DNA from: Planctomycetota bacterium
Lineage (GTDB): Bacteria; Planctomycetota; B15-G4
DNA length: 64,000 nucleotides
Reading direction: 5' to 3'
Assembly (NCBI GenBank): GCA_029245865.1
Contig: JAQWOM010000043.1
Span: 76,846-140,845, forward strand
Part shown: in pieces, positions 21,516-57,608 of the stretch
Position numbering within the stretch: position 1 is the stretch's first letter
How the letters are laid out: the number at the start of each line of letters is the position of its first letter
Translations under genes and position numbers: made by a program
Notes under the pieces: generated by a model
What the model was told of the DNA's origin: nothing
What the model saw: the letters and a program-made list of their open reading frames with translations, nothing else
The model's database searches: none

Positions 21516-21801
21516 GTATTGCACATTAAGGGGGATCAGTTCTGTCATGCCTGCCAAGCTCCGATTCTGAGGGCGGAGCCAACGGGTAGCTATAGGATGC
21601 CATCTCAAGTCGGACACGTCTCCGTGGGCACCGAGGACTTCCCTCAGTTCACTGCCATTTCCCCATCCTCGGGGGCCTCAGAGGACCTGCCGAGGCCATG
21701 GCTGCCCACCGTGGCCAGAAGGCCGTCCCTCAGGACATTCGACGTCTCCGGCGGCTGGATCTGATACACCGTTCCGATTCCCGCATCTCGGAGCCCCTTG
21801 A

Positions 21802-24331: not shown

Positions 24332-27300
24332 TCAGTAGCTTGCACGCATGCGAACGTATTCCGCTTGCGGCCGGAAGCTCTCGACCCCGAATGGGAATTC
24401 GGTCAAATTCACGCCGATGTCGAAACGAACTCGAAACCGCACGAGTGGATACCCCGACAGTTCGGTCAAGTCGGACAGCCACGCCGTAGTCGTCTCCTCA
24501 TCCGGGACACTTGATCCGGGACGCACAGCATAAGCACCCTGAAAGCGAACGGACACGGCGGCGTTATCAGAAACTGCGTCGAGTTGCAGAATGCTCTGAT
24601 CTGGTGCATTCACGCGGATATCGTTGTACGGGGCTGTGTTGCCAGGTGACGAAGGGAACAAGCTCGGCGACCCTGTGCTGATCGAGTTTTTCACGTAGTG
24701 GGCAGGCTTGCCCACGACAGCACCGCTCAGAATCATCCGTCCATCGCTTCCTGCTGGGGTCACCTCAGGTGCCGAAGCGTGATGAGTCCCCAGAAAAGCC
24801 TCAAAGAACGGTGGAGTCCGTCCATCCTCATTGCGTGCACGTAAACCCGCTCCCTGGAAGTCCAGCCAGACCGAGGTCCCCACGCTCACTGTCCCGAGGG
24901 GGGGCGGCGTCTTGCTCGGGTGAATCACGGGCAAGCGCGTGACCAGATTGTCCGGATCGAAGACATCTTTACCGTCCAACTCCACTGTCGGAAGCGTTCC
25001 ATCGGGCTCCACCATACGGACGCCAAAGGGAATCGTTTCACCGGCGTGAGTCGTCCCCGGCGTTTTTGGAAATTTGGGATCGGAGGCGGGGTTGTTGATT
25101 TCCTTGAACGTCACCGGGTTGTAGCCGTTGTAGGTCTTCATGACCTTCTCCGGCTCAGGCTCACGCACGAAGGCGACCCCAGGGAATTCCGGCATCTCCA
25201 TCATCGCCGTGTCAAACCAGGTCTGACCAGAGTCTGGGGGATATTCATTGGTCAGCGACGGGAACGACCCATTGGGTCCGCCCTCACTCGGGATGAGTGG
25301 TGGGTAGGCCCCATTCAAGACGTAATAACGATCGAAAAAATTGGTCCCGGGTTGCAGAACGAATGAGCGGTGATGAAGCATGTCGATGTAGCGCAGGTCG
25401 TCCGACAGTTCGTCATCAGGAAAATCGGGGTGATCACCCTGCTTCGCGTTGAGGTCGCCCGTCCAGGTTCCGAGTTTCAGAATGGAGCGCTGCTTTGCGA
25501 AGAGGAAAGCGCCCGGTTGAATCTCGGGGAACCCCGTGCCATCCCCCATCTGCAACTGGATCAGGCCGGCGCCACCCTGCCCTCCGTCACTCCGCGTGTG
25601 ATCAAAAGTAAAAGACTGGAAGTCGATGGTGTTGGCGGGATTTGTCCGAGAGTCACGCCCCATGCCTCCCGACACATCCAGAGAGGCCCCCTGCTTGCCA
25701 TCAACGTCGACATAGGACGCGCTCAGGTGACCTTCGTCTGCCTCGATGCGAATGTTCCCCGCTGCCTGAAGGACGATTGCACCGCCACTGCCGCCACCGC
25801 CACCTCCGCTGAAGGCACTCGTCTGAACCACTTCTCCTCCGCCACCGTGGCCGCCGCTGGCATCGATGTGACCGAGGCGCCCGATGACGATGTCACCAAA
25901 CGAGCGAATCTGGACGGAACCGCCCCCGCCACCACCTCCCCCACCCTTTGCATCCAGGCTAGAGGGAGCCAGAAAGACGCCCACCAGGAGCTTGGGGAAG
26001 AAGGGCGGGGCAAGCGCCGGTGGTACGGGAGCACCGAGGGCATTCAACGACCAACCTGCGTGGCGCATGCTGTCAACGCGCGAGCCACCACCCCCACCAC
26101 CTTGTCCACCAATCAGCACGGGCAGTTCACCACCCGCACCAATGAAATCGTTGGACGTGTCGCCATCGCGGAAAACCGGATCGCCGGCATCCGCACCAGG
26201 CTTGATGCGAGAAATACTGGTTGGATCGGTGTAATCCTCAGACGCCCCCGGCTTGAACGTCATATAGACGCACTGCAGCGGTGTCTTCGGCAACTGCCCC
26301 GAATAGAAGTTCTCGTCATTGCCGTAGACGGCGTCGCTCCGCTTGTTGTTCGTAGGGCATTTCGTAAAGGGGAACCAACTGCCGTTGCTCTGAATCAGAT
26401 AGGCCCCACTTCCTTCACGCGAGGGCTGCCCCACGTGATAGAAACTTCCGCCACCTCCACCAGGTGCCCGATGGTGTTCGGTGTTATCGCTTGGCGGAAT
26501 CTTGGGGATAAACGCGGCCGTAGGATCAAAGCCCACTGTGCTTAACCCCCCATGCCCTCCAATCTGCTGAACCGTCAGCTTTCCGCCAGGAGTGAGAACG
26601 GGGCCGAAGCCACGCTCACCTGTTTCCGGAGTGACGTACTGGTCGAGGGAGGCGGGTCCGTTGGGGTCGAACAACGTCGGCTGGCTGTCACCGCCTCGGC
26701 CACCACCGGGGCCACTTGGCCCTCCACGCACCGCGACAAAACCCGAATCGAAAGAATCGTCACTGAGACCGTCCGTCCCTTTGATCGTCAGGACCCCGTT
26801 GATTTCGACCTTGCGCGTCGCCGTGATCACCAACGGCTTGCTACCCCGAGCGATCACTTGCGCGCCCTCAGGGATGATGAAATCGCGAAATGCGAACTGA
26901 CCGCCATAGATGGTGATGTTCTCTGTGATGCCCGGAGTCGCACCGCTCGGCAATGGGAAAGACTGCGCATCTGTATCCAGGAAGACCGTGTTGAATGTGG
27001 TCAATTCCAGCGACAGATCCCTTTCACCCTTCGTGGAACTTGAACGCGTGTAAGCAAACAGCTCTTCGAAATCGGGCGATCCCCCAGGAAGGAAATCGCC
27101 GAGGTCTACTGTCTCGCTGACACCGACAGAGGCTCGCAAGCCGGGCACAATGGACGAGCCCACAAAGGAGCCCGACCACTCGGCAAGCGGGCTCGTGCCA
27201 ATCGGCGATTCATCCTCGTACTTCCGCTCCTCAAACTCTTCGAGGAATGTGTCGTCAATATAGGCTTCTGGCCCGGCCAGGGGGATCGCTGTGTGCAAAC

Positions 27301-29335
27301 TGAGCAGTCGCGTGGCTCCCAGGGGCGTCACCGTATCTTCGGGGTCTTCATTCACCGCGTTCGTACCGAAGAGTGACATCAGCGTGTTGCGCTGCATCAC
27401 ATCCAACTCGGCATCGATCGGAAGGACGCCCACGGGCCTCAGCTCCAAGACAGCGCCCTCTTCGGCGTTGGACTGAACCACCACATCGACATCGAAGTCC
27501 ATGAAGCCGACGGTCAACGCCCGAGCCGGGCTCAGGTTCTCTGGAAAGCTTGTAAGCGGGTGCCCGAAAGCCGCCACGTCTGAGACAACTGTGCCAAGAA
27601 CGCCCAGGTCGGGGTCGATGACCTGGATGGAATCGAGTGTTCGGTTGAGCGCCAAGATCCGATTCTCGCCGACAAACTGGAGATCGACGTATCGCCCGGA
27701 GAGTTCCAGCGCGACATCGGTTTCCAACCCACTGAAAAGGCCGTCGCCGTCCTCAAATTCCCCGTCAAGTTCGAAGTCAATCGGCGCCAGACGTAAGATC
27801 GAGGTTTGATCAGGATTGCCATTTCGAATGGCGAGGGCATACAGCTTCCCCGAGGGAGCCTGCGCGAGATCGAGGATCTCACCCGCAGATTCCGGTTGCG
27901 GAGCACTCAGAAACCCCGTCTCTCCATCACCCGTGGCCACGCTCACCAGAATCGGGGCCTGGAGGTCTTCCTCGACAGGGTTCGGCCGGCGTCGGATGAC
28001 GGTTGGCAACAGTTCATGAAGACGCCGAGTGCTCCTGTCGTACGCCACAAGTCGGCCGTCCAGAAGCGTCACAAGCCCCACCAGATCTTCGAGCCCTGTC
28101 GTGACAGGTCCTGGCTCACCGCCCTCGTCAGGCGCAACAGCCATCCGTGCGTGAAACGGATCTCCGAGGACAGGGTCCGCCACGGAGAGCAGGTCAGGCC
28201 CTCCATCCACTTTGAGAATCGACCACAGCAGCGACGCGTCCAGACCACACGCCATGCTTCCGATCGTGCCTGTCAGTTCGGGATCAGGGTCGGGCAGTGC
28301 GCCCGAAGTCTCGTTATGAAGAAAGATGTTTGCGCCTGAAGCGTCCGGATCCACGCCCTCGTCAAGCGCCGAGAGAGCCTCGAAGGCCGGATGCACGCCG
28401 AACGTGTCTGCTGGCACGGCGTGCGACACAAGCAGTCCAGTTCCCCGAGCCCGCAAGAAGAACGTCGGATCAAGGAGACCGTCAGCATTGAGATCTAAAC
28501 CCGCCAGGTTGTCACTTGTCGGCACCAAAGCACGGTCGTAGGTCAGTGCGATCTGCTCGGCGCCAAGGGGAAACAGCGATGTCCCCTCGAACTCGAGCGA
28601 GGTCGTCGAAAAGGTCTGCGGGAAGAAGTCCGTCGTGCCATCCGGGGGGACGGCGCCTGCGAGGGCCGGTTTCAATCCATCAGCACCGCTCGTGGGATAA
28701 TAGGCTGCCGAGTTCGAGGTGGTGCCAAACTTCACCGTGCCAGGCACACCTTTCAGATCAGGGTGCAGATTCTGGATACGCGTACTCGGCAAGGTGGAGA
28801 CGGCCACCGTGTAAACCGACGCTGGCAACAAGCCCGGCACGGATTCTGCGGGCGCAGAAAGAACCGGTGAAAGCGGGGCCGTCGGCACGAACGGCCGAAA
28901 CTCCACCGTATTGCCAACGCGCACATAAGTACCCTTGGCAGTGATGACCGGGGTGGTGCCATTGGCCCCCGACTCCGGCCCCACCTCAGCGAGCGTGGTG
29001 TAAACGGGCAGGGAGGCGCTGTTAAACGGCCCCGAAGGTGGACCGCTGAACCGAAACACCAGCGTCAGATTGAGTGGGCCACCAGCCGTTGCTGGCGTCG
29101 AACTCAGATCTTCCATGGGCGGCTGCGTGAACTCCGGATCTGAACCTATCCGGAACGAAAACCCCAGAAAATTGACCAGGTTCGACGTGCCGCCGCCGCC
29201 ACCGCCGCCACCGCCACCACCGCCGCCGCCACACGCCGCGAGTGACAGACAGACAACTCCTAGAGCGAGGCCTCCGAAGACCCGGGCGGTCGATCGCGTC
29301 ACCACACCGGCTCGGCCGTCAATCCAGCTTTTCAT
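24332..29335 (-). CDS. giant surface lipoprotein paralog B (lipobox LAAC followed by a G14 tract; beta-propeller-like and glycine-rich beta-helix-like modules)
   Basis: Signal peptide MKSWIDGRAGVVTRSTARVFGGLALGVVCLSLAAC, then GGGGGGGGGGGGGGTSN. Internal poly-G (AKGGGGGGGGGSVQIRSFGD...SGGGGGGSGGAIVLQAAGNIRIE). Start overlaps the giant A stop by ~16 nt, suggesting translational coupling. Confidence 0.7.
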   Translation of the reverse strand: MKSWIDGRAGVVTRSTARVFGGLALGVVCLSLAACGGGGGGGGGGGGGGTSNLVNFLGFSFRIGSDPEFTQPPMEDLSSTPATAGGPLNLTLVFRFSGPPSGPFNSASLPVYTTLAEVGPESGANGTTPVITAKGTYVRVGNTVEFRPFVPTAPLSPVLSAPAESVPGLLPASVYTVAVSTLPSTRIQNLHPDLKGVPGTVKFGTTSNSAAYYPTSGADGLKPALAGAVPPDGTTDFFPQTFSTTSLEFEGTSLFPLGAEQIALTYDRALVPTSDNLAGLDLNADGLLDPTFFLRARGTGLLVSHAVPADTFGVHPAFEALSALDEGVDPDASGANIFLHNETSGALPDPDPELTGTIGSMACGLDASLLWSILKVDGGPDLLSVADPVLGDPFHARMAVAPDEGGEPGPVTTGLEDLVGLVTLLDGRLVAYDRSTRRLHELLPTVIRRRPNPVEEDLQAPILVSVATGDGETGFLSAPQPESAGEILDLAQAPSGKLYALAIRNGNPDQTSILRLAPIDFELDGEFEDGDGLFSGLETDVALELSGRYVDLQFVGENRILALNRTLDSIQVIDPDLGVLGTVVSDVAAFGHPLTSFPENLSPARALTVGFMDFDVDVVVQSNAEEGAVLELRPVGVLPIDAELDVMQRNTLMSLFGTNAVNEDPEDTVTPLGATRLLSLHTAIPLAGPEAYIDDTFLEEFEERKYEDESPIGTSPLAEWSGSFVGSSIVPGLRASVGVSETVDLGDFLPGGSPDFEELFAYTRSSSTKGERDLSLELTTFNTVFLDTDAQSFPLPSGATPGITENITIYGGQFAFRDFIIPEGAQVIARGSKPLVITATRKVEINGVLTIKGTDGLSDDSFDSGFVAVRGGPSGPGGGRGGDSQPTLFDPNGPASLDQYVTPETGERGFGPVLTPGGKLTVQQIGGHGGLSTVGFDPTAAFIPKIPPSDNTEHHRAPGGGGGSFYHVGQPSREGSGAYLIQSNGSWFPFTKCPTNNKRSDAVYGNDENFYSGQLPKTPLQCVYMTFKPGASEDYTDPTSISRIKPGADAGDPVFRDGDTSNDFIGAGGELPVLIGGQGGGGGGSRVDSMRHAGWSLNALGAPVPPALAPPFFPKLLVGVFLAPSSLDAKGGGGGGGGGSVQIRSFGDIVIGRLGHIDASGGHGGGGEVVQTSAFSGGGGGGSGGAIVLQAAGNIRIEADEGHLSASYVDVDGKQGASLDVSGGMGRDSRTNPANTIDFQSFTFDHTRSDGGQGGAGLIQLQMGDGTGFPEIQPGAFLFAKQRSILKLGTWTGDLNAKQGDHPDFPDDELSDDLRYIDMLHHRSFVLQPGTNFFDRYYVLNGAYPPLIPSEGGPNGSFPSLTNEYPPDSGQTWFDTAMMEMPEFPGVAFVREPEPEKVMKTYNGYNPVTFKEINNPASDPKFPKTPGTTHAGETIPFGVRMVEPDGTLPTVELDGKDVFDPDNLVTRLPVIHPSKTPPPLGTVSVGTSVWLDFQGAGLRARNEDGRTPPFFEAFLGTHHASAPEVTPAGSDGRMILSGAVVGKPAHYVKNSISTGSPSLFPSSPGNTAPYNDIRVNAPDQSILQLDAVSDNAAVSVRFQGAYAVRPGSSVPDEETTTAWLSDLTELSGYPLVRFRVRFDIGVNLTEFPFGVESFRPQAEYVRMRASY
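29189..29230 (-). repeat. (CCN)14 / Gly14 coding tract after the lipobox Cys of giant paralog B
   Basis: Plus strand gccgccgccaccgccgccaccgccaccaccgccgccgcc; encodes 14 consecutive Gly. Confidence 0.85.
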
Positions 29336-32300
29336 AAGGGATGACGATCGAGTTGATGATCGGCGGTTGCGTGGAGTTGGGCGCGACACCGAAGCTCGCC
29401 CGGAACTTGATGTAGGTGTACTCATCATCCGGGCCACTGAGATCGACGGTGAAGTTGGGCTCATCGGAACGGACGTAACCCGACTCCAGCGTGGGCGCCG
29501 CGAAGTTCAACTGGCGGCCAGCACGGAAATCAACGGCCAGCGACGCAGCAGGATCGACGTCGGCAACTGGCGGATGAATGATGGGCCGCTGGTAGCGAGC
29601 CGTGGTTCCATCCACTTCGATCGTGGGTGATTCGATCACCGAAACGCGCTTCTTGTACTTCCACATCATGTAGTAGCGGCTGTTGTCACCAAAACGCGAG
29701 GGAGGAGCCGTCATGCCTGGCTCGTTCGAGATGACGGTGGGCGCGGTGTTCGAGAACCCCTCATTGAAAGGAATATCACACGGGTCAGCACCCGGCCCGA
29801 TGGCCCCTGGTGGAGGTCCGTACCCGAAGAAGAAGGTCGGCGGCTGCCCGGTCGGCCCCGGAAACGACGTGGGGTCCGGAAGCGGATTCATGAGCATGCC
29901 GTTGGCGTAGTAGTAGTTCGTCTCTGGCAAGACGTTGCCCCCGGGCAAGGTCGTGATGCAGCAGAGGTCGTCGTCATAGACGCCGTTCAGCGGACCGAAC
30001 GACTCGGGGCCTGTGTAGCTCGGTGTGGGTTGAATGGCGATCGTGTCGCCTCCGGCACAGTCCGGAGATTCGGGAATCTTCGGTGGCGTGATGTAGTCAA
30101 TGGGCAATTGGGTCGGCATGCCGTTGTGAAGACCCTGAGGTGCCACGGCCGAGGTGTAGGAACCAGGCTTGAGCAGAGGGCCACCCTCGCCCGCATGCAA
30201 GTAGTTGAGCTGCTTGGGGCAGGTCGCAATCCCAATCGACCAGTTGGGTGCGTTGTAGGCTGCCGGGTGCTGACCCTGACTCCAGATACGGAAGCGAGGC
30301 AACACGGAGGTCAGGATGCCGGGCGAGAACCGATACACATTGCCAGGAGGAGGCGATTCGTTGGGACCGATGGAATACTCGATGAGCATCGGGAAGCGGC
30401 TGTCGTACGGGAAAGAGAAGACATCCTCTTTGCCGAAAAACGGGTCGAGTCCCGCATTGAAGTCCGGATAGTCCAGATAGAGGTTGAACGCACCAGGCGT
30501 TGACCCTGCGTTCGTCGGCTTGAACAGGTTGGTCGGACTCAGCGTGTAGGCCGTTCCGCGCTGAACAACGGTTGTCGTCTCTGGCTGGGGGTTCTTCTCC
30601 AGTTGTGCCTCCAGGTTGTTGGTCAGGCCTTGTCCCTCTCCAATGCAGCAGTTGTCGAAATGCTCAAGACGGTTGCAGTCAAAGTTCCTGTCCAGGCCTG
30701 AATCATCGTCGGCAGGAATTCCGTTGGTCTGATTCGTGTTGGGCCCGCGGCCTCTGTTCGCACCACCGAGACCGACGAGGAGTTCGAAATCGTCCAGCAC
30801 CGTGGGAAACACGACGTCATCGAACGGGGACCAGGCCAGACCCACCAGATCGAGAGTCACGCCGGCGAAAGACGTCTGGGACGGCGAGGCATCACCTGCA
30901 CGGTAGACATGCTGGAAGCGCGCACCGAAACCCGAGTTGATCGGCGTTCCTGCGCCAAAGCCCAGCGACACCAGCAAATCTTCCCCGTTCGGCGACGCCC
31001 AGGCCGAAGGTTTGGGGGGATTGTTGTTGTCGATCAGGTGCTGAATGACAGCTGCCGGCGCACCGGTGAGCCAACCGGGAATGTTCAGGCCGACCTCCGT
31101 CACCTGCGGGCCGTAGATGAAACGCCGCTCTGGAATGCCGTTGTCGTCTGAATCGATCGGAGGGTAATCGTTGTATTCGACCCCAGACGTCACGCTGTCA
31201 TGCACGCTGCCCTCTGGGTAAGTGATGTTTGCTGTCAGCGGCTGCCCAAGGAAGCGGTGCACAATCACGCCGTAGTCGGGATCGCTGCTCGGCAAGGTGT
31301 CAAAGGTCATCGAGTTGTCGATCGCCGGCGGGAAGGCCCCTCGCGAGGGGCTCGTCGGCACGAGAAAGAAGTTCTCGGTGTCCCCCTGGTCGAGAAGGGC
31401 TGCGGGAAGGCCGAGCCCTCGACCACCCACATTGATGCAGCCCGTGATGCCCAAGGTGTTCAGGTCATCCAGTTGAGCCAGCACTTCGGGAGTTGCCGTG
31501 GCCGCGATCTCGTCAATCGTGGACTGAGGAGGAAGCGTACGCACCACGAGACGGAGTTGGCTGGCGGTACCACCAAAGCCAACGAAACGCGAGTTGGATG
31601 TTTCAACCTGATCTTCAAGGTAAGGCTGGAACTCCATCACGGACCCATTGTCCAGGGCCACCGTCCGCCCCAGTCGCATGTCCCTGAATGCGCTATCGGT
31701 CGGAGACAAAGAACCGTCCGCGACATAAAAAGACTCGTAAGGATCGAAGCTCGCGACGTCCATGCCCTCGCTGAACTGGAGACGCAACGACGTGCGAGGC
31801 GGAACAGCAAGGAAAGTCGACGTCGCTGCATTCCAGTGATTCAGACGCTCCTCTCCGAACTCATCGAACATGCGTACGAAATACCGCAGATCGCTGTTGA
31901 ACTGATCCTGAGGATCGTTCGGATCACGCGGGACGCTCTCTGGGTCGACCGTGATCGCCGCAAGGCTGACCGGATCGCTGGGAAAAGGAGGCGGAATGGG
32001 CTCGAAGAATTCGCTTCGTGACACGGTGTAGGCATCACCCACATTCGTGTCCACAGCAAGAGACTGCCCCGGCGCCAGCCTGAAGACGGCGTCGCCCCCG
32101 GAATTGAAGTTCGACTCCAGGACGTACTGGGTGGTGCCCTCGAAGGATTCCACTTCCATCAATCCGTTGGCCCATTCGCCCTCACCGTCATTCGCGCTGG
32201 TGTTCGGAAGCTGAGCCAGCGAGTCATCGCGGAGCTCAAACTGTCCACCCACAAAGTCGAGAGAAGACAGTGAACTCGACAGGACCACACGACGAATGAT

Positions 32301-33152
32301 GCGAGGAGCTGTGAGATCGGGCAGGAATCCGTTGAACGACACCGCGCCGTCATCTGTCTGCAACACGATCGCGTCGAGTGCGCTGTTCCCCGTGTTGACC
32401 GGAAGTGGGCGCACCAGACTCCCAAGCTTGTCATCTCGTGTCTGAATGGGCAGGCCCGAGACGGACTCCAACGCGCCACCTCCGACACTTCCGCTCACGA
32501 CGGCTCTCAGGAATCCCGTGGAATCCTCCACGGCCGTTCCCGTCTGGTCAAAAACCAGCGGGCTGGCTTCAAACCCAAGACTCTCGCTCGTGATGCCGAC
32601 GATCACCACCTGGTTTCCCACCACGAACGCGCGAGACGGAATGACGGCCCCAGACTTACGTTGCAATTGAACCGTGCTCAGAGGACCGAGCCGATTCGTT
32701 TCCCCCTCGGCCGTCGGCGACAGCAAAGCGAGACTCGCCTCCGACACCGGCATGGAGAACTCAAGAATCAAAGCGGCATTGCGAGGCAGCAATGGAATCT
32801 GCGGCGTGAGCGGATCCAAGATCTGAGCCAAGCTGAGCGACGCGAGAGAGGAAAGCGAGGCTCCTTCGGTGAGCACCTTGGGAAAGCCCGGCAAGACAAC
32901 ACCGGTGAGCGGGTCGATCTCGTAGAGCGAGGCTGGGTTCACCAAGTTCAAGAGTTCGCCCTGCAGATCCAAGATGGGCCGCGCAAAGGCTGCGCCCGTC
33001 AGGAAGAAGTCGACATCCGGATCCAGAGGTGTCGAGCCTCCAGTGCTTCCACCACCACCACCACCACCCCCGCCACCACCACCACCACCACATGCCGCCA
33101 GCAGCCCAAACATGGCCGCGACAAGGGCTCGACTGAGCAGGGACTGTGACAT
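29319..33152 (-). CDS. giant surface lipoprotein paralog A (lipobox LAAC followed by a G15 tract)
   Basis: ATG at 33152 with GGAG 8 nt upstream. Signal peptide MSQSLLSRALVAAMFGLLAAC, then GGGGGGGGGGGGGGGSTGGS. About 1277 aa, rich in G/D/P/S/T. Shares the C-terminal motif RPIIHP with paralog B (RLPVIHP). Confidence 0.7.
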   Translation of the reverse strand: MSQSLLSRALVAAMFGLLAACGGGGGGGGGGGGGGSTGGSTPLDPDVDFFLTGAAFARPILDLQGELLNLVNPASLYEIDPLTGVVLPGFPKVLTEGASLSSLASLSLAQILDPLTPQIPLLPRNAALILEFSMPVSEASLALLSPTAEGETNRLGPLSTVQLQRKSGAVIPSRAFVVGNQVVIVGITSESLGFEASPLVFDQTGTAVEDSTGFLRAVVSGSVGGGALESVSGLPIQTRDDKLGSLVRPLPVNTGNSALDAIVLQTDDGAVSFNGFLPDLTAPRIIRRVVLSSSLSSLDFVGGQFELRDDSLAQLPNTSANDGEGEWANGLMEVESFEGTTQYVLESNFNSGGDAVFRLAPGQSLAVDTNVGDAYTVSRSEFFEPIPPPFPSDPVSLAAITVDPESVPRDPNDPQDQFNSDLRYFVRMFDEFGEERLNHWNAATSTFLAVPPRTSLRLQFSEGMDVASFDPYESFYVADGSLSPTDSAFRDMRLGRTVALDNGSVMEFQPYLEDQVETSNSRFVGFGGTASQLRLVVRTLPPQSTIDEIAATATPEVLAQLDDLNTLGITGCINVGGRGLGLPAALLDQGDTENFFLVPTSPSRGAFPPAIDNSMTFDTLPSSDPDYGVIVHRFLGQPLTANITYPEGSVHDSVTSGVEYNDYPPIDSDDNGIPERRFIYGPQVTEVGLNIPGWLTGAPAAVIQHLIDNNNPPKPSAWASPNGEDLLVSLGFGAGTPINSGFGARFQHVYRAGDASPSQTSFAGVTLDLVGLAWSPFDDVVFPTVLDDFELLVGLGGANRGRGPNTNQTNGIPADDDSGLDRNFDCNRLEHFDNCCIGEGQGLTNNLEAQLEKNPQPETTTVVQRGTAYTLSPTNLFKPTNAGSTPGAFNLYLDYPDFNAGLDPFFGKEDVFSFPYDSRFPMLIEYSIGPNESPPPGNVYRFSPGILTSVLPRFRIWSQGQHPAAYNAPNWSIGIATCPKQLNYLHAGEGGPLLKPGSYTSAVAPQGLHNGMPTQLPIDYITPPKIPESPDCAGGDTIAIQPTPSYTGPESFGPLNGVYDDDLCCITTLPGGNVLPETNYYYANGMLMNPLPDPTSFPGPTGQPPTFFFGYGPPPGAIGPGADPCDIPFNEGFSNTAPTVISNEPGMTAPPSRFGDNSRYYMMWKYKKRVSVIESPTIEVDGTTARYQRPIIHPPVADVDPAASLAVDFRAGRQLNFAAPTLESGYVRSDEPNFTVDLSGPDDEYTYIKFRASFGVAPNSTQPPIINSIVIPYEKLD
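33045..33089 (-). repeat. (CCN)15 / Gly15 coding tract after the lipobox Cys of giant paralog A
   Basis: Plus strand ccaccaccaccaccacccccgccaccaccaccaccaccac; encodes 15 consecutive Gly. Confidence 0.85.
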
Positions 33153-33495
33153 CACATCACTCCGGTGATTCATGCGATTCATGGCGATAGGTGCGATTCG
33201 TCTGGAACAGCGGCCCCTCGCAAAGGAAGACCTCCATCTAAAGAAGAGGATACCCGTGCGTTTCCGACTGACCATACGCGTGCCTTGAAGGATCGAGGGA
33301 ATCAGCCGTCCGGAGGATTCAGAAGGGGGAAGGCGGCCTGGAACCCGCCCAGGATACCCTTTCAAGCTGCTCTCTGCCTTGACGAAGAGCGCCCACAAGG
33401 CCTGACAGAGCCGCACAGGGCGTCGGCCGAATCACAGGGTTCTCGGGCTCCACCAGGGCTCCACCAGGGCAACGCCACCGGCCACCGACATCCAC

Positions 33496-48958: not shown

Positions 48959-49035
<77 letters not shown>

Positions 49036-49529
49036 ATCCGACGCAGCGGGCTGTCTCACGACAACCAAAGAAAGAACAGAAAGAACATTCCCCCGCCCTC
49101 TCTGTCAACACCCCACACCATCCCTATCTCGGTTCGAAGTACCCCCGGCTTGGTGCAATCGCGGTTATTTTTCACCGAATTCTGGAAAAAGTTTCGAGTG
49201 AAACATCGCTTCAACCGCGAGACGTGTTCCGACGACGCCGTGCGTCATTCTTGGCGCTCGTACACGCCCAACACAGCGCACGTGTTGTGAGAAAAAACCC
49301 GAGAGAAAAAGGGTTTTCGCAAATGCAGACGTGTTCCGTGCACTTCCAACTTCCTTGTGCATAACTCTCAAGCAAAGCCACGCGCAGACCTCGATTCTCT
49401 GTCGTTCAGAGGACTTCCGGGATGGAATCGGCATGTTCGGCGCTTCATCCTGCCCGCATCCCACCGATCCAATAACCGAGGGGCATGTGCCCCCTCACAC
49501 ATCCTTTTGCAAAAGGGAGATCCCTGATC

Positions 49530-49847
49530 ATGGCTAAGAAGAAAGCCACTAGAAAAAAAGCGACTCGCAAGAAGGCGACGCGTAAGAAGGCAACGCGTAA
49601 GAAGGCCACGCGTAAAAAGGCAACTCGCAAGAAGGCGACCCGCAAGAAGGCGACTCGCAAGAAGGCGACTCGCAAGAAGGCGACTCGTAAGAAGGCGACC
49701 CGCAAGAAGGCGACCCGCAAGAAGGCGACTCGCAAGAAGGCGACTCGCAAGAAGGCGACTCGCAAGAAGGCGACCCGCAAGAAGGCCACGCGCAAGAAGG
49801 CCACTCGCAAGAAGGCCACGCGCAAGAAGGCCACGCGCAGGAAGTAG
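49530..49847 (+). CDS. histone H1-like lysine-rich repeat protein, about 20 tandem KKATR pentapeptides (AlgP/Hc1/BpH1-like)
   Basis: MAKKKATRKKATRKK... to the stop; GGGAGA Shine-Dalgarno 9 nt upstream of ATG. 15-nt coding repeat with synonymous third-position variation, which argues for selection on the protein. Confidence 0.7.
   Translation: MAKKKATRKKATRKKATRKKATRKKATRKKATRKKATRKKATRKKATRKKATRKKATRKKATRKKATRKKATRKKATRKKATRKKATRKKATRKKATRKKATRRK
49545..49844 (+). repeat. 15-bp tandem coding repeat (aag aag gcN acN cgN), about 20 copies
   Basis: Directly visible periodicity; units differ only at synonymous positions. Confidence 0.9.
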
Positions 49848-49984
49848 TGCACGCCTGCCTTCGGGCAGCGTGATCCGCTCCTGAGCGGACGATGGGCGTC
49901 CTCCGGCAATCGGGGGGCGCCCATCAGCGTTTCTAGGCTAAAACCGGGGCTAAACCGTGGAAAGCCGCCCCCCCTAGATCCGCG

Positions 49985-53095: not shown

Positions 53096-54397
53096 TCAGG
53101 CCGCTTCACCGTGATCGTCCAGGTGCCCCCCCGCGTCGGTCTCGAGCAGATCGCCGAACTCTCTGCTGAGTTCACCCTGAACGCAGGAAATCAACAGGGG
53201 CCGATTCTCGAGTCGCGTGTGGAGTCGCACCGGCCCTCCCCACAGAGCAGCGAGATTTTTGAGTGTGTCATCGGCCGCTGCCATCTGGAGTTCCTGCCCA
53301 CTCCAGCAATGCTCGAGTGACAGTTCACCATCACCCCCCTCGCACATCCGGATGAGGGGCTGCCCACCGTTGGTCAAACTCGAAAGAAGCTGCTCCCGCG
53401 CCATGGCACGGTCCTCTTGCGTCTTTCCTAGTTTGTGATGACGACAGAAATCGTCATCCATGAAGTTTTCGACAAAAGTCAGATCGTTGTGCACCGCTCG
53501 AACATCGAACAACTTGGCGAGAGCCGCCTCACCGCCGCCGTGCGCCTTCTCGATGGAGCGGAACAGTTCGAGGCCCAGTTTGTACGGATTCATCGGTCCG
53601 TCACTCCCACCCATGGCGCCACTGTGCTGATCTGCGTAATCAACAACCTCCGCATCACACAGCAGGCTGCTGGTCATGAGGCGACTGTGCCAGAAGCTGG
53701 CCCAGCCTTCGTTCATGACCTTGGTCAGCATCTGTGGCAAGAAGTAGTACGCCTCATCCCGCAGAATCGAGAGCACTTCTTGCTCCCAATCTGCCAGCGG
53801 GGCATCCAGCAGAAGGCGGCCAAGAATATCTCGTTCGCTGACGCCCCTGGCACTGCCCAGCGGTGGTGCATTCCCATGCTGCCCCCTCGCTCGAGCCATG
53901 GCGCCGTGATCCACCAGATTGTCCAAACTGTGCACCCGGTCGATGAATGACTCGACCACTTCCATGCCGTGACGGTCTGACAGAGCCCGTATCCGGGCTC
54001 CGTGGCTGGCCATGCCGTCCATCATGTTTCCGTCGGTGTGTGAAAACCACGCGTTGTTCGCGAAGAAGTCTGCGTGGCCGCACACGTGAGCCATCACCAG
54101 CTTTTGTTCCACAGCGGAGTTCTGACTGAGTAAATACGCCACAACCGGTCGCGTGTTCACCACCAACTCGTAGATCCGCTGCAATCCATACGTGTGGCCC
54201 TTGATCAGTCGGTCGTACTCCATGCCGAAACGCCAATAGGGATAGCGCACGGGGAATCCGCCGAGTGCGGCGATTTCATTGAGCTGCCGGTGGTCCACGA
54301 CTTCGTACACGACCTCTGGAAACTGCAAGCCTCGGCCACGAGCGAGCGACTCGACCTCCTCTTGGAGAGACGTCAATTCAGGCGAGAGGGCGCTCAT
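53096..54397 (-). CDS. SpoVR family protein
   Basis: ...YPYWRFGMEYDRLIKGHTYGLQRIYELVVNTRPVVAYLL...HVCGHADFF... matches the SpoVR N-terminal conserved region. Confidence 0.8.
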   Translation of the reverse strand: MSALSPELTSLQEEVESLARGRGLQFPEVVYEVVDHRQLNEIAALGGFPVRYPYWRFGMEYDRLIKGHTYGLQRIYELVVNTRPVVAYLLSQNSAVEQKLVMAHVCGHADFFANNAWFSHTDGNMMDGMASHGARIRALSDRHGMEVVESFIDRVHSLDNLVDHGAMARARGQHGNAPPLGSARGVSERDILGRLLLDAPLADWEQEVLSILRDEAYYFLPQMLTKVMNEGWASFWHSRLMTSSLLCDAEVVDYADQHSGAMGGSDGPMNPYKLGLELFRSIEKAHGGGEAALAKLFDVRAVHNDLTFVENFMDDDFCRHHKLGKTQEDRAMAREQLLSSLTNGGQPLIRMCEGGDGELSLEHCWSGQELQMAAADDTLKNLAALWGGPVRLHTRLENRPLLISCVQGELSREFGDLLETDAGGHLDDHGEAA

Positions 54398-54399
54398 AC

Positions 54400-55509
54400 T
54401 CAGAGCCCCTTACCGAGGAAAGTTTTGATCGCAGGAAGAATGCCGTCTCGGTCAAGGATCTCAGCACTGATCACATGCTCCTGACCTGTCACAGAGTCGT
54501 CGAGATCTTTCATGAACTGCCCCGACCCGTAAGCGCTCTTCACTTGTCCGTAGCAAAACATGTTGGCACCTGGCAGCAGGCGCTCGCGAAGCAACTCAAG
54601 GCACTTCTCGGTATCTCGGCCACTCCAATTGTCTCCATCCGAGAAATGAAACAGATACACGTTCCAATCCGATGCGGGGAACTGCGTGTCAATCATTTCG
54701 GCGGCGAGTTCGTAAGCGGAACTGATCTTCGTGCCACCGGACTCCCTGAGCCTGTAAAAGGTTTCCTGATCGACTTCCTTCGCGGCCGCATCGTGCACCA
54801 TGTAGCGCGTCTCCAGGCTGCGATACTGACTACGCAGCCAGGTGTCGATCCAGAAAGACACAAGCCTCACGATCTCTTTCTGCTCTCTCCCCATCGAGCC
54901 TGAAACGTCCATCATGTACAGAATCATCGCTGCGTGGTCGGGAGTGGTGACGTCCCGGAACGCGCGATAACGCAGGTCGTCTGCGATGGGAATAAGTTGC
55001 GGGTGGTCCGGGTCGTAACTCGCCTCGCCGATCTGCCGTTTCAATGTCTCTTTCATCGTTCGCCGAAGATGGCGAAGCGACCGCGGCCCACTTCGGCTCA
55101 CGCTGTTGTACTTACGACTCGCAACCTCTACGCGAGCCCGGCCACGGGGCTCGATGTTGGGCAACTCGAGTTCTTCACCAAGAATGGCCGCCATTTCGTC
55201 CAGTCGCAGCTCCACTTCCAGCAAGTGCTGACCAGCCTCACTTCCAGCGCTGCCGACAACATCACTTTCGTCGCCGGGACCCTCCGAAGGGTTCTCATTC
55301 GCGCCGGCGCCCTGCCCACCACCGTTCGTCCCATGCCGCAAGCGGGGCAACTCGATACGAGGCACCGGAATGGAAACGAGTTGCCGCCCCCGCCTCCCGA
55401 CCATCTCACTTCCCGTCAGATACTGCTTGAGATCGCGCTTGATCTGACCGCGCACGATGTCGTCGAAACGCCGCCGGTCCCGTTCGATACGCCCCACGGG
55501 GTTCGTCAC
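54400..55509 (-). CDS. YeaH/YhbH (DUF444) family protein with vWA-like domain
   Basis: MTNPVGRIERDRRRFDDIVRGQIKRDLKQYL... matches the DUF444 N-terminus. Sits between prkA and spoVR as in the canonical triad. Confidence 0.75.
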   Translation of the reverse strand: MTNPVGRIERDRRRFDDIVRGQIKRDLKQYLTGSEMVGRRGRQLVSIPVPRIELPRLRHGTNGGGQGAGANENPSEGPGDESDVVGSAGSEAGQHLLEVELRLDEMAAILGEELELPNIEPRGRARVEVASRKYNSVSRSGPRSLRHLRRTMKETLKRQIGEASYDPDHPQLIPIADDLRYRAFRDVTTPDHAAMILYMMDVSGSMGREQKEIVRLVSFWIDTWLRSQYRSLETRYMVHDAAAKEVDQETFYRLRESGGTKISSAYELAAEMIDTQFPASDWNVYLFHFSDGDNWSGRDTEKCLELLRERLLPGANMFCYGQVKSAYGSGQFMKDLDDSVTGQEHVISAEILDRDGILPAIKTFLGKGL

Positions 55510-57608
55510 GATTCGCCATCCTGCTCCGGCTCAACCAGCTTGGCATCACCTCGAGCAAAGACCCCTGCCACATGCTCCAACGCCCGCCCCGCACACCTTT
55601 CGCAGTAACCGGTGTCCGTCACGAGGCGGCCTGCGATCAGTTCCACCTTCTCCAGAACATCACGATCCACCACGGTGCTAGTCGCGGCCGTGAGCTTGAA
55701 GGTGTCCCGGCTATCCTCAAACAACTTCAACTCGAGCGCAGACCGCAAGCGAGGGTTCGACATGTAGTGAAAGCTTTCACCTCGCACCGCGAGAGCTTCG
55801 ATGTAGTTCACGATCTCACCACGAAAATCGGCCTTTCGTGATTCGGTCACGCCAATCTTTTCCTCGACTGACCTCATCAGACGCTCATCGCCGGGGCCAT
55901 CGTTTTGAACAAAATCCGTCACTGCATCGACGTAGTTGCAACACAAGCGGCAAACCGCTTCCGCGTCCCCCACGACAGCTTCGCGGACCTCGGCCTTGAT
56001 TCGCTCCTCGATTTCCTCGCGCACCAACGCGATCAGTTCCATGAAATGGCGTTTCCGCTCCTCGCTGTCCATCAACGGATGGTCATCCAACCCATGTTCA
56101 AGTGAATCCAGAACATCAAAGGGCGTGAGGCAGGGCGGCGCGCCATCGGCCACCAAGGCCGCAGCAATACGGTCCTGGACATAGCGTGGCGAGATGCCAT
56201 TCATGCCTTCCCCAACGGCTTCCCGGCGCAACTCGCTTGCCGTAGCAGAACCGAAACCATTCACAGCCTGGCCGTCATAGAGGTACATCTTCTGCATGAG
56301 CGAGATGCTGGCGTTCTTCGGCTCTTCCAACCTCGTCAACACGGCCCACATGGACGCTGCTTCGAGCGCATGTGGCGCGAGGTGACGTCCCGCGCATGAC
56401 GTCGTCCCGAAACTCTTGCGGTAAATGCGAACCTCCTGCCCGAATCGCCGGTTGTAGGGAATGTCGATCTTGCAGGTGCGGTCTCGAAAGGCCTCCATGA
56501 GTTCGTTGCCTTGCAGGCGCCGGTACTCGGGGCTGTTCGTGTGCCCTAAAATGACCTCGTCGATGTCAGTCTGCGCAAACTTCTTCGGCTTGACGGTCTG
56601 CTCCTGCGTGGCACCCAGCAAGTCGTAAAGAAAGGCCACATCGAGTTTCAGAATCTCTATGAACTCGATCATGCCGCGATTCGCGACATGGAATTCGCCA
56701 TCAAAGTTGAAAGCCCGTGGATCGCTATCCGATCCGTATTCCGCAATGTGCCGATAGTTGATGTCGCCGGTCAGTTCTGTGCTGTCCTGGTTCTTCTCAT
56801 CCTTGGGCTGAAAAGTGCCGATCCCCCGGCGGTCTTGCTCTGACAAGGTGAAGCGATAAACCTCGATGGCTCGCTCAACTGCTGCAAAATCGCCGCCCGA
56901 CTCGCGCATGATCTTGTCGTGGAAAAACCGACACAGCGGACAGGGTTCTCCAGTTGGCTGCAATTCATAATCACTGTCGAAACGCCGGTTGAGATCCGCA
57001 TACACGGAGCCCAGGACTTGCTTCGGCAAGAGGTGCAGCGGGTCTTCATGCATGGGGCAATCATGAACCTCACCGTCGATCACCCAGCGATAGCTGTAAA
57101 TGGCACCTTCCGAACGACGCGACATGTCCTGCAAGCCACGCTTCAACAATCGTGCAATGGTCGACTTGGAGCTTCCCACGGGTCCGTGCAACAACAACAC
57201 GCGATGCTCAGGTCCCAATCCATGGGATGCAGCACGTAGGTGGGCAACGAAGTCGGCAAGAGGTTGCTCGAGGCCAAAGATGGCATCGCTCCCCTTGTCG
57301 AAGGGATCTTCGAAAAACCGGTAGTGCACCGGCCGCTCGCTTCCAGGAGGGGGCGCATCGCACCCGAAGCCCTGAATCATGTCGAACATGCGCTGAAACG
57401 CATTACGCGCCAGCCTCGGATCTTCACGCACGAGTTCTAGATAGCTGGCAAGCGTTCCGGTCCAGTGGAGATCTTGCCAATGACTTCGTGTGTCGCCACG
57501 GCGGGCGAGGTTGATGTACGAAGGGATGCCAGCAAGCTCCTGGGAGTCGTCCTCGGACAACTCGCGTGGCGTACGGACAGGGCGGTCATCAATGCGGTCG
57601 TCATGCAT
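55506..57608 (-). CDS. prkA: PrkA family serine protein kinase (AAA+-like)
   Basis: Walker A LLHGPVGSSKST, PrkA C-terminal domain, about 700 aa. Confidence 0.85.
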   Translation of the reverse strand: MHDDRIDDRPVRTPRELSEDDSQELAGIPSYINLARRGDTRSHWQDLHWTGTLASYLELVREDPRLARNAFQRMFDMIQGFGCDAPPPGSERPVHYRFFEDPFDKGSDAIFGLEQPLADFVAHLRAASHGLGPEHRVLLLHGPVGSSKSTIARLLKRGLQDMSRRSEGAIYSYRWVIDGEVHDCPMHEDPLHLLPKQVLGSVYADLNRRFDSDYELQPTGEPCPLCRFFHDKIMRESGGDFAAVERAIEVYRFTLSEQDRRGIGTFQPKDEKNQDSTELTGDINYRHIAEYGSDSDPRAFNFDGEFHVANRGMIEFIEILKLDVAFLYDLLGATQEQTVKPKKFAQTDIDEVILGHTNSPEYRRLQGNELMEAFRDRTCKIDIPYNRRFGQEVRIYRKSFGTTSCAGRHLAPHALEAASMWAVLTRLEEPKNASISLMQKMYLYDGQAVNGFGSATASELRREAVGEGMNGISPRYVQDRIAAALVADGAPPCLTPFDVLDSLEHGLDDHPLMDSEERKRHFMELIALVREEIEERIKAEVREAVVGDAEAVCRLCCNYVDAVTDFVQNDGPGDERLMRSVEEKIGVTESRKADFRGEIVNYIEALAVRGESFHYMSNPRLRSALELKLFEDSRDTFKLTAATSTVVDRDVLEKVELIAGRLVTDTGYCERCAGRALEHVAGVFARGDAKLVEPEQDGES

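Follow-up and report, generated by a model that had tools for sequence, protein, structure and literature searches.

Bacterial H1-like lysine-repeat proteins with a strain-variable number of repeats have been known since AlgP, on which papers date from 1990 (PMC9239181), and Hc2 and BpH1 are further long-known examples (PMC2848022). The chlamydial Hc2 consists of consecutive lysine-rich pentamers with evenly spaced charge, each having two basic residues and three that are mainly Ala, Val, Thr or Pro, and is flanked by a conserved 24-aa N-terminus and a 69-aa C-terminal region. Its length ranges from 165 to 237 aa via duplication or deletion of repeat elements, with subtypes at silent sites; it binds DNA, binds RNA more strongly than Hc1 does, and is reported to repress translation (PMC2848022). 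BpH1 is likewise a repetitive lysine/alanine-rich protein of strain-variable length (PMC2848022). In Pseudomonas, AlgP (net charge +55) is located on polyphosphate (polyP) granules and needs its lysine-repeat C-terminus for their even spacing (PMC9239181), while the lysine-repeat tail of PhaF binds specific mRNAs upstream of the Shine-Dalgarno (SD) sequence and activates translation (PMC12818456); DNA, RNA and polyP granules are all described as ligands of such tails (PMC9239181, PMC12818456). In Streptomyces TopA, lysine repeats are reported to stabilise the enzyme-DNA complex (PMC5714199), and the same is reported of protein-DNA complexes for lysine-repeat tails of bacterial DNA enzymes and nucleoid proteins (PMC5714199, PMC3553676). 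Here, we describe a gene whose product consists almost entirely of such a repeat, (KKATR)n, in a 64,000-nt stretch of contig JAQWOM010000043.1 from a Planctomycetota bacterium (hereafter the window), together with its relatives in other genomes.

The gene and its repeat array

The open reading frame (ORF) starts with the ATG at 49530 and ends with the TAG at 49845-49847 on the + strand. Its 105-aa product reads MAK, 20 perfect KKATR units and RK, with the repeat spanning residues 4 to 103, exactly as the original prediction had placed and described it. The polybasic protein has a mass of 12.3 kDa, a composition of K42 R21 A21 T20 M1 and a net charge of about +63; its 63 basic residues make up 60% of the chain, and acidic, aromatic and proline residues are absent. 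Inspection of the sequence revealed neither a signal peptide nor a hydrophobic segment, and the sequence and Pfam together gave no folded domain and no non-repeat segment. The ORF, the minisatellite within it and the overlapping antisense ORF are located as follows.

49530..49847, + strand: coding sequence of the 105-aa polybasic protein with its stop codon (sequence; strand and frame from comparative ORF boundaries, and a gene caller on locus L204)
49539..49838 in register, + strand: 15-bp coding minisatellite of 20 units in 11 distinct DNA versions (Tandem Repeats Finder and unit comparison)
49445..49924, - strand: antisense 159-aa ORF, (VAFLR)n, a by-product of the repeat and not a gene (shared third codon positions; comparative boundaries)

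Tandem Repeats Finder reported a period of 15 bp with 19 copies and 91% matches at 49560-49844. The unit consensus is AAGAAGGCGACTCGC, and all 28 departures from it are silent in the peptide, which agrees with the predicted synonymous-only divergence of the copies; they lie at third positions, apart from one CGC-to-AGA Arg codon. Of the 21 Arg codons in the ORF, 19 are CGC or CGT. Counted as (position, base) states, the departures reduce to nine, and of the 45 single changes possible in a unit just 11 are synonymous. When each shared state is counted as one event, the probability that all nine variant states are silent is about 3e-6, and purifying selection on the peptide is supported by this comparison of the units. 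Along the array, units 1-7 at the 5' end are all different, units 17-20 at the 3' end are of a GCC type, and the centre (units 7-16) contains a 75-bp (5-unit, 25-aa) higher-order duplication. The longest exact internal repeat is a 62-nt direct repeat (49626-49687 and 49701-49762) at an offset of 75 nt, and it therefore shows that the centre arose by duplication of a 5-unit (25-aa) block. By comparison, Hc2 contains higher-order elements of 36 aa, whereas 25 aa is the most that the window array reaches.

Coding strand

Read as (VAFLR)n, the antisense ORF is nearly as perfect a repeat, and 26 of the 28 array differences are silent in it too. The sense and antisense ORFs share their third codon positions, and synonymous-only variation therefore fits both strands. 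Such variation points to selection on some peptide without telling which strand encodes it; the selection that had been proposed from it stands, whereas its power to discriminate between the strands does not. A DNA-pattern scan of 185,579 species-representative genomes was performed with two adjacent perfect KKATR units as the query, and it returned at least 120 loci; all counts of these loci given here and below hold among the matches listed. In the strand test, the basic tract was bounded by charge density, and an ATG no more than 12 codons before it and a stop no more than 12 codons after it were sought in six frames. In the K-rich frame, 60 of the 86 evaluable loci passed, against 0, 0, 2, 1 and 0 in the other five frames. 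The + strand was assigned because these tight boundaries recur across genomes only in the K-rich frame. Furthermore, the stand-alone KKATR proteins begin with MAKK, MAAR or MAVK right at the tract, and an independent gene caller (ENA) selected the same strand and the same start on the near-identical locus L204. The comparative boundaries indicate that the + strand gene is real and that the antisense ORF is a by-product, as had been suspected, and we consider it very likely that the gene is expressed.

On two contigs that end inside the array, L205 (1424-1636) and L206 (1424-1615), an ORF was called opposite to the KKATR frame. Contigs broken in the array can, in this way, yield spurious hydrophobic-repeat 'proteins' in databases.

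Distribution of KKATR proteins

The scan gave 81 complete loci and 39 that were cut by contig ends. The complete loci comprised 60 stand-alone proteins consisting of the basic tract only and 21 longer proteins. Most belonged to the Phycisphaerales and other Planctomycetota, and the remainder to Myxococcota, Acidobacteriota, Eremiobacterota/Vulcanimicrobiota, Eisenbacteria, Latescibacterota and some Gammaproteobacteria. The 73 complete proteins that were mostly basic had a median length of 109 aa, and 57 of them were free of acidic residues. Self-identity was highest at a lag of 5 or 10 in 68 of the 73; homologues with a conserved repeat periodicity, which were looked for on the basis of the original prediction, were thus found. 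The composition of the pentad among the matches listed is given below, and both it and group membership are biased by the demand of the scan for two adjacent perfect KKATR units.

Pentad position 1: K 86%
Pentad position 2: K 96%
Pentad position 3: A 78%
Pentad position 4: T 77%
Pentad position 5: R 73%, K 15%

We delimited an operational group of stand-alone (KKATR)n proteins by an ORF of 30-230 aa, a start of the form MA(K/A/V)(K/R), a Lys+Arg content of at least 45%, pentad periodicity and a stop within about 12 residues of the tract end. The window protein and 60 of the 81 complete loci have all of these features. An all-against-all comparison of the flanking ORFs showed that neighbourhoods are kept in Phycisphaerales (35 loci with one neighbour family), Myxococcota (12-15 loci) and Eremiobacterota (14 loci), a comparison that is approximate in that raw ORFs in G+C-rich DNA include shadow frames. 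The conserved neighbourhoods imply long vertical retention within each lineage, and they are equally compatible with one origin and with independent arrival at the motif.

A homology search of a 15-billion-sequence protein collection with the window protein gave no match, and exact look-up of 20 KKATR-type proteins in the same collection returned none, including the 65-aa product of L204. The flanking RecR, DnaX, HAD and SpoVR proteins of the same contig were all present. The absence appears to reflect a low-complexity filter and not absence of the family, because even the L204 product, which a gene caller had listed, was missing; word-indexed homology searches are therefore blind to these proteins. 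A phmmer search of 1.84 billion representatives returned 701 matches that were uninformative for homology, the best being either tails of long proteins or unrelated periodic low-complexity sequences built on motifs such as RRDAT and QRNAT. The PDB sequence search gave weak matches only, to the basic N-terminal region of actinobacterial sigma factors, and the viral contig scan gave three incidental two-unit matches only.

In the Eremiobacterota/Vulcanimicrobiota loci (L021, L028, L030, L039, L068, L093 and L114), whose proteins read MAVKRKK...RRKKAAPAA, a conserved stretch lies directly 5' of the start, with the in-frame translation ...LYNIGNNPG...QRKDDSTHM. Its conservation suggests a leader or promoter distinct from that of the window's clade.

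Comparison with known systems

Neither Pfam nor NCBIfam gave an above-threshold match for the window protein. In a relaxed Pfam search (E up to 10) only weak HC2 and Extensin_1 matches appeared, of which HC2 alone is meaningful, and no Linker_histone. The model for the histone H1-like nucleoprotein HC2 (PF07382) scored the syntenic orthologue L012 at 47.5 bits (E = 3e-12), above its cut-off of 40, and gave 16 bits to the orthologue L124 and to a relative from Eremiobacterota. Membership is therefore borderline: orthologues lie on both sides of the threshold, and perfectly homogenised arrays are penalised. The Burkholderiales model NF038053 (hist_H1_lk_Burk) gave the window protein 23.1 bits (E = 7.2e-5) against a curated cut-off of 80. 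Judged from these scores and from the repeat architecture, the closest known relative is chlamydial Hc2, and not Hc1, AlgP or BpH1, which the original prediction had named; its assignment to the lysine-rich H1-like proteins as a kind was borne out.

With Hc2 (HctB), the window protein shares lysine-rich pentamers, a repeat region without acidic residues and a length that changes by blocks of repeats, and its 20 perfect pentads give the consecutive arrangement and even spacing of positive charge by which Hc2 is characterised. Chlamydiae and Planctomycetota both belong to the PVC superphylum. Hc2 differs in its role in the chlamydial developmental cycle, for which the KKATR protein has no known counterpart. 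BpH1 of Bordetella and the H1-like proteins of Burkholderiales show a similar lysine/alanine-rich repetitiveness, a variable length and the weak model match given above, but the window protein is not a member of this type, as repeat motif and composition differ. The tails of AlgP and PhaF resemble it in their tandem short lysine-rich repeats, predicted disorder, high charge and a repeat number that varies between isolates or species. They consist, however, of proline-containing KPAA tetrads with 25% basic residues and follow a folded N-terminal domain with a second function, whereas the window protein lacks proline, has a period of 5 instead of 4 and has no N-terminal domain. Actinobacterial TopA, mycobacterial HupB and Ku also carry their tails appended to catalytic or folded DNA-binding domains, while here the tail is the whole protein.

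The C-terminal domain of linker histone H1 and the protamines are rich in Lys, Ala and Thr, lack acidic residues and are presumed to pass from disorder to helix on DNA as their charge is neutralised. The KKATR protein resembles them in composition, and its KKAT pattern recalls, speculatively, the regulation of H1 and protamines by phosphorylation. Eukaryotic H1 is nevertheless distinguished by a winged-helix globular domain flanked by basic tails, which the window protein lacks, as it lacks (S/T)PXK motifs; its sequence is perfectly periodic, and nothing in it speaks for common descent. The label 'histone H1-like' is a description of composition only; in that sense it holds, while the globular domain that it might suggest is absent. 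Against the literature searched, the stand-alone tail-only (KKATR)n form, its breadth over several mostly uncultured phyla and its conserved leader are new, or at least were not found.

KKATR tails on other proteins

Basic tails containing KKATR were identified by Pfam on a planctomycete topoisomerase I, a protein with two H-NS C-terminal domains, a helix-hairpin-helix protein and a WS/DGAT wax-ester synthase (L051), the tail of the latter being HC2-like. An HU-like bacterial DNA-binding protein (P0118), recognised by eye and not by Pfam, has a related lysine-rich KKAT(T/A) tail. The KKATR-tail proteins are located as follows.

L051, 779-2584, - strand: WS/DGAT wax-ester synthase with KKATR tail
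L082, 4119-6773, + strand: topoisomerase I with KKATR tail
L050, 3204-4121, - strand: H-NS-domain protein with KKATR tail
L121, 4457-5278, - strand: helix-hairpin-helix protein with KKATR tail

In proteins from Bdellovibrionota and Myxococcota (L025, 1915-2433, - strand; L036, 6298-7122, + strand), a duplicated module of about 35 aa, KAGVKRExGxLYxIDKxGxVxRxKMARGG, precedes a KKATR-type basic tail. The module had no Pfam match and may represent an undescribed small nucleic-acid-binding domain.

Copy number and reliability of the array

Exact look-up of the HAD protein identified five further contigs. One of these, the 193-kb L204, comes from a different sample and an independent assembly and matches the window at 99.4-99.6% identity in the flanks. 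Only 12 units are present in its gene (65 aa), compared with 20 in the window, and the predicted variation of repeat number between strains was thereby observed. The L204 array consists of window units 1-7 and then five units of the GCC type, one more than in the window, which equals a deletion of units 8-16 and a duplication of unit 18. The part missing from L204 is the higher-order-duplicated centre. A third arrangement is seen in the covered part of L205, and the array is cut by the contig end in L205, L206 and L208. As no exact internal repeat of the window array exceeds 62 nt, 150-nt reads or k = 141 can resolve it. The polymorphism is taken as probably real though not proven, because the gain of a unit is not what a simple collapse by the assembler would produce. 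Single-contig assemblies of 3-6 Mb (L017, L019 and L076) contain intact arrays of 16-27 units, and long arrays as such are therefore not artefacts; the collapse that an assembly artefact would produce was looked for and was not seen in these chromosome-scale assemblies.

Locus, orthologues and regulatory signals

The KKATR gene is preceded by sigma-54, recR, ybaB, dnaX, the signal recognition particle (SRP) RNA, two tRNA-Ser genes, tadA, tRNA-Arg(ACG) and a gap of about 500 nt. It is followed by a convergent HAD phosphatase, an SNF-family transporter, a small ORF, a 151-aa ORF, SpoVR, DUF444 and PrkA. Exact look-up gave protein records for RecR (MDG2150015), DnaX (...017), HAD (...020) and SpoVR (...024). 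Five syntenic orthologues were found, two in genomes (L059 and L012) and three in metagenomes (L124-L126), all with the order tadA, tRNA-Arg(ACG), KKATR gene, HAD and SNF and with neighbour proteins 54-75% identical to their window counterparts. The orthologues are 79, 143, 135, 34 and 143 aa long, or about 6 to 27 pentads. Degenerate units (KKATA, KKTTR, KKAAK, KKVTA) occur in several of them, with KK the most constant part and the fifth-position Arg replaceable. The start MA(K/A/V)(K/R), the SD and the terminator are conserved. The following features surround the gene.

48959..49035, - strand: tRNA-Arg(ACG), divergent, a syntenic neighbour in every orthologue (tRNA annotation and orthologue comparison)
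49444..49468, + strand: conserved promoter-like block with invariant TTCAT (49444-49448) and CACCGAT (49462-49468) (orthologue alignment)
49478..49496, + strand: candidate 5'-leader hairpin GAGGGGCA-TG-TGCCCCCTC (RNAalifold consensus, 6 orthologues)
49503..49516, + strand: perfect 14-nt palindrome CCTTTTGCAAAAGG, with its 3' arm running into the SD (orthologue comparison)
49515..49519, + strand: SD sequence GGGAG, 10 nt before the ATG (sequence; GGAG invariant in the orthologue alignment)
49850..49925, + strand: three 3' hairpins in a row; the 15-bp stem of the last (49891-49925) is G+C-rich and is followed by CAGCGUUUCU (folding)

The strong SD and the downstream hairpins had both been anticipated, and both were found. 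The palindrome CCTTTTGCAAAAGG is identical in the window and four orthologues, while L059 has a different perfect palindrome, CTGCGTGCACGCAG, in the same place, with four pairs changed on both sides; this pattern makes it a candidate leader hairpin or operator. In the 5'-leader hairpin, four of six pairs show changes on both sides in the RNAalifold consensus of six sequences, and the window leader folded alone was not significantly stable (z = -0.8). A sigma-70 consensus scan found no + strand site, and the TTCAT...CACCGAT block, which we infer to act as the promoter, is unlike the sigma-70 consensus, which may point to another sigma factor or to a site for a regulator. Downstream, the three hairpins have a folding energy of -55 kcal/mol (z = -5.7 relative to shuffles), and a G+C-rich hairpin with a T-rich run lies 3' of the stop in all five orthologues, which is likely to be an intrinsic terminator. 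A terminator consensus scan gave no + strand site, because the T run after the last hairpin is short. Rfam returned no match for the leader or the 3' region, either at the gathering threshold or at E up to 1. The KKATR gene thus appears to form a transcription unit by itself, headed by a structured leader, as far as six sequences, which are too few for proof, can indicate.

On the opposite strand, GTTGACA (49103-49109) is invariant in all five aligned orthologues, corresponds to the -35 element TTGACA and lies about 70 nt upstream of tRNA-Arg(ACG), of which it is probably the promoter. A functional link of the KKATR gene to tRNA-Arg and tadA was considered and rejected as clade-specific collinearity. 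A function drawn from gene neighbours was rejected likewise: L085 is flanked by NadE and an aromatic amino-acid hydroxylase, and the window gene by the HAD phosphatase and the SNF transporter. About 3-8 kb downstream lies a PrkA-DUF444-SpoVR operon (53096-57608, - strand) of the yeaG-yeaH-ycgB type, a stress/starvation module in which PrkA has AAA_PrkA and PrkA kinase domains. The operon is collinear in L124-L126, and its linkage is not specific to the KKATR gene. KKAT fits the basophilic-kinase pattern [KR][KR]x[ST], and phosphorylation of Thr as a charge switch is conceivable.

The orthologue L012 (JBLIMM010000195.1) is an 8.8-kb contig labelled Pseudohongiellaceae that is collinear with the window in dnaX, tadA, the KKATR gene, HAD and SNF at 58-73% protein identity. 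It was probably mis-binned into a gammaproteobacterial metagenome-assembled genome. Upstream in the window lie three very long ORFs on the - strand, at 17085-21617 (1510 aa), 24332-29464 (1710 aa) and 29319-33416 (1365 aa).

Proposed function and alternatives

The reading that we favour, and hold to be fairly probable, is that the protein is an H1/Hc2-like non-specific polyanion binder that acts chiefly on chromosomal DNA, coating or compacting the nucleoid. That it binds nucleic acid or another polyanion at all appears likely from its composition and from the experimentally studied analogues; that nucleoid compaction is its main role is close to an even matter, inclining slightly towards doubt. 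In the proposed mechanism, the evenly spaced Lys and Arg side chains would neutralise the backbone phosphates, and the chain would probably be disordered when free and helical when bound. A bound chain of about 150 Å could span some 45 bp or bridge two duplexes, and the nucleoid would be compacted or coated in the manner of chlamydial Hc2 and the H1 C-terminal tail. AlphaFold2 returned one continuous helix over residues 2-104 from the single sequence (mean predicted local distance difference test, pLDDT, of 93), which we read as no more than a propensity to form a helix after charge neutralisation. Slippage or unequal recombination, acting mostly on the homogeneous centre, would make the minisatellite grow and shrink; protein length and valency would differ between strains as a result, while selection would keep the peptide register.

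Several points weigh against this reading. The window protein itself scores 14.7 bits (E = 0.034) with the HC2 model, below the gathering threshold of 40, and likeness between low-complexity sequences is no proof of common descent. Hc2 has two basic residues per pentad where three are found here, in a protein that is 60% basic and has neither proline nor valine. The non-repeat termini of Hc2 are absent as well, only MAK preceding and RK following the array, in a comparison made with the description of Hc2 in PMC2848022. The evidence for a copy-number difference comes from short-read metagenome assemblies, in which three other contigs break within the array, and the neighbours are housekeeping genes, which are uninformative on function. 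KKATR tails also occur on enzymes without a DNA role, namely the WS/DGAT protein of L051 (Pfam) and, by eye, an acetyl-CoA-synthetase-like C-terminus. In the literature searched for stand-alone KKATR proteins nothing was found except accidental 'KKATR' strings. AlphaFold2 models tend, in our experience, to be over-confident for Lys/Ala-rich repeats, and a helix with a charge of +63 is implausible without a counter-polyanion. Lastly, the tails of PhaF, AlgP and Hc2 bind RNA or polyP besides DNA, so that any of these may be the physiological ligand.

A protein directed to RNA or the ribosome, which would affect translation through binding to mRNA leaders or rRNA, or serve as an RNA chaperone or condensate scaffold, is an unlikely but arguable alternative. 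It would match the activation of translation by the PhaF tail bound upstream of the SD (PMC12818456) and the translational repression and the RNA affinity, above that of Hc1, ascribed to Hc2 (PMC2848022). A KKATR-tract protein with a module like domain 2 of EF-Tu (L097) and the position of the gene within a translation-related block (two tRNA-Ser, tadA, tRNA-Arg and SRP RNA) point in the same direction. The tRNA neighbourhood, however, is kept only in this clade, with no nearby tRNA in twelve other lineages; the recognisable fusion partners are mostly DNA-binding domains, and with charge as the only feature a specificity for RNA over DNA cannot be argued. The protein could instead be a scaffold or tether for polyP or another anionic inclusion, linking granules to the nucleoid as AlgP does, which we regard as improbable. 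The charge of +63 would suit such a role, given that AlgP, at +55, sits on polyP granules and spaces them through its C-terminus (PMC9239181), and the HC2-like tail of the wax-ester synthase L051 may be an echo of granule tethering as by PhaF. AlgP and PhaF, however, have a folded N-terminal domain for their second binding function, whereas the KKATR protein has none; no ppk, ppx or granule gene is adjacent, and DNA binding would be compatible with tethering anyway.

The remaining explanations are much less credible. That no functional protein exists, the array being a selfish or neutral minisatellite, the antisense (VAFLR)n the true product or the whole an assembly artefact, is largely refuted and very improbable. 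Such a view could draw on the open and almost equally 'conserved' antisense frame, the many arrays at contig ends, the disagreement of independent assemblies on copy number, the complete absence of 20 such proteins from the 15-billion-protein collection and the other strand being called on two truncated contigs. It conflicts with the tight ATG and stop boundaries, which occur in the K-rich frame only (60 loci against 0-2), and with the conservation of start, SD and terminator at a locus kept at 54-75% protein identity. Single-contig assemblies contain 16-27-unit arrays intact, 150-nt reads can resolve the 62-nt repeat, and the absence from the collection appears to be due to a database filter, because the 65-aa L204 product is missing from it too. 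A regulatory 'hungry' ORF, in which 42 Lys and 21 Arg codons would respond to how much charged or inosine-modified tRNA is available, can be entertained only faintly. The 19 CGC or CGT codons are read by the inosine-modified tRNA-Arg(ICG), and the gene for that tRNA and that for its deaminase TadA lie directly upstream in all seven clade members. With its own terminator and a convergent next gene, however, the ORF has nothing downstream to attenuate; the tRNA/tadA pair lies on the opposite strand, its linkage is missing in other lineages with the same protein, and the codon bias, in units that are copies of one another, carries no independent weight. An exported polycationic antimicrobial or adhesive peptide is scarcely conceivable: the extreme cationic charge is like that of protamine-like antimicrobials, but a signal peptide and hydrophobic segment are absent, and no transporter, immunity or processing gene is adjacent apart from the unrelated SNF-family symporter.

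Implications

A further-reaching reading can be put forward tentatively, although it is rather unlikely. The stand-alone (KKATR)n proteins would form a widespread, unstudied class of minimal 'protamine/H1-tail-only' chromatin proteins in Planctomycetota, Myxococcota, Acidobacteriota and Eremiobacterota, hidden by low-complexity filtering. Their dosage would be set via the structured leader next to the SD, their valency via a contingency-like minisatellite, and their charge might be switched by phosphorylation of the conserved Thr in each [KR][KR]xT pentad. The PrkA-type Ser kinase operon, whose linkage is not gene-specific, is 5.7 kb downstream in the window.

The family is systematically under-reported: its arrays break short-read assemblies, gene callers sometimes pick the wrong strand, and its products are missing from the 15-billion-sequence collection. 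As about the simplest natural model of a linker-histone tail, a single repeated pentad with natural length alleles, the KKATR proteins would be convenient for studying valency and charge spacing in DNA condensation or phase separation. DNA packaging in these phyla has long been debated. Provided that it is abundant, the protein would be among the main factors that organise the nucleoid (or RNA/polyP) in Planctomycetota and in several other poorly cultured phyla.

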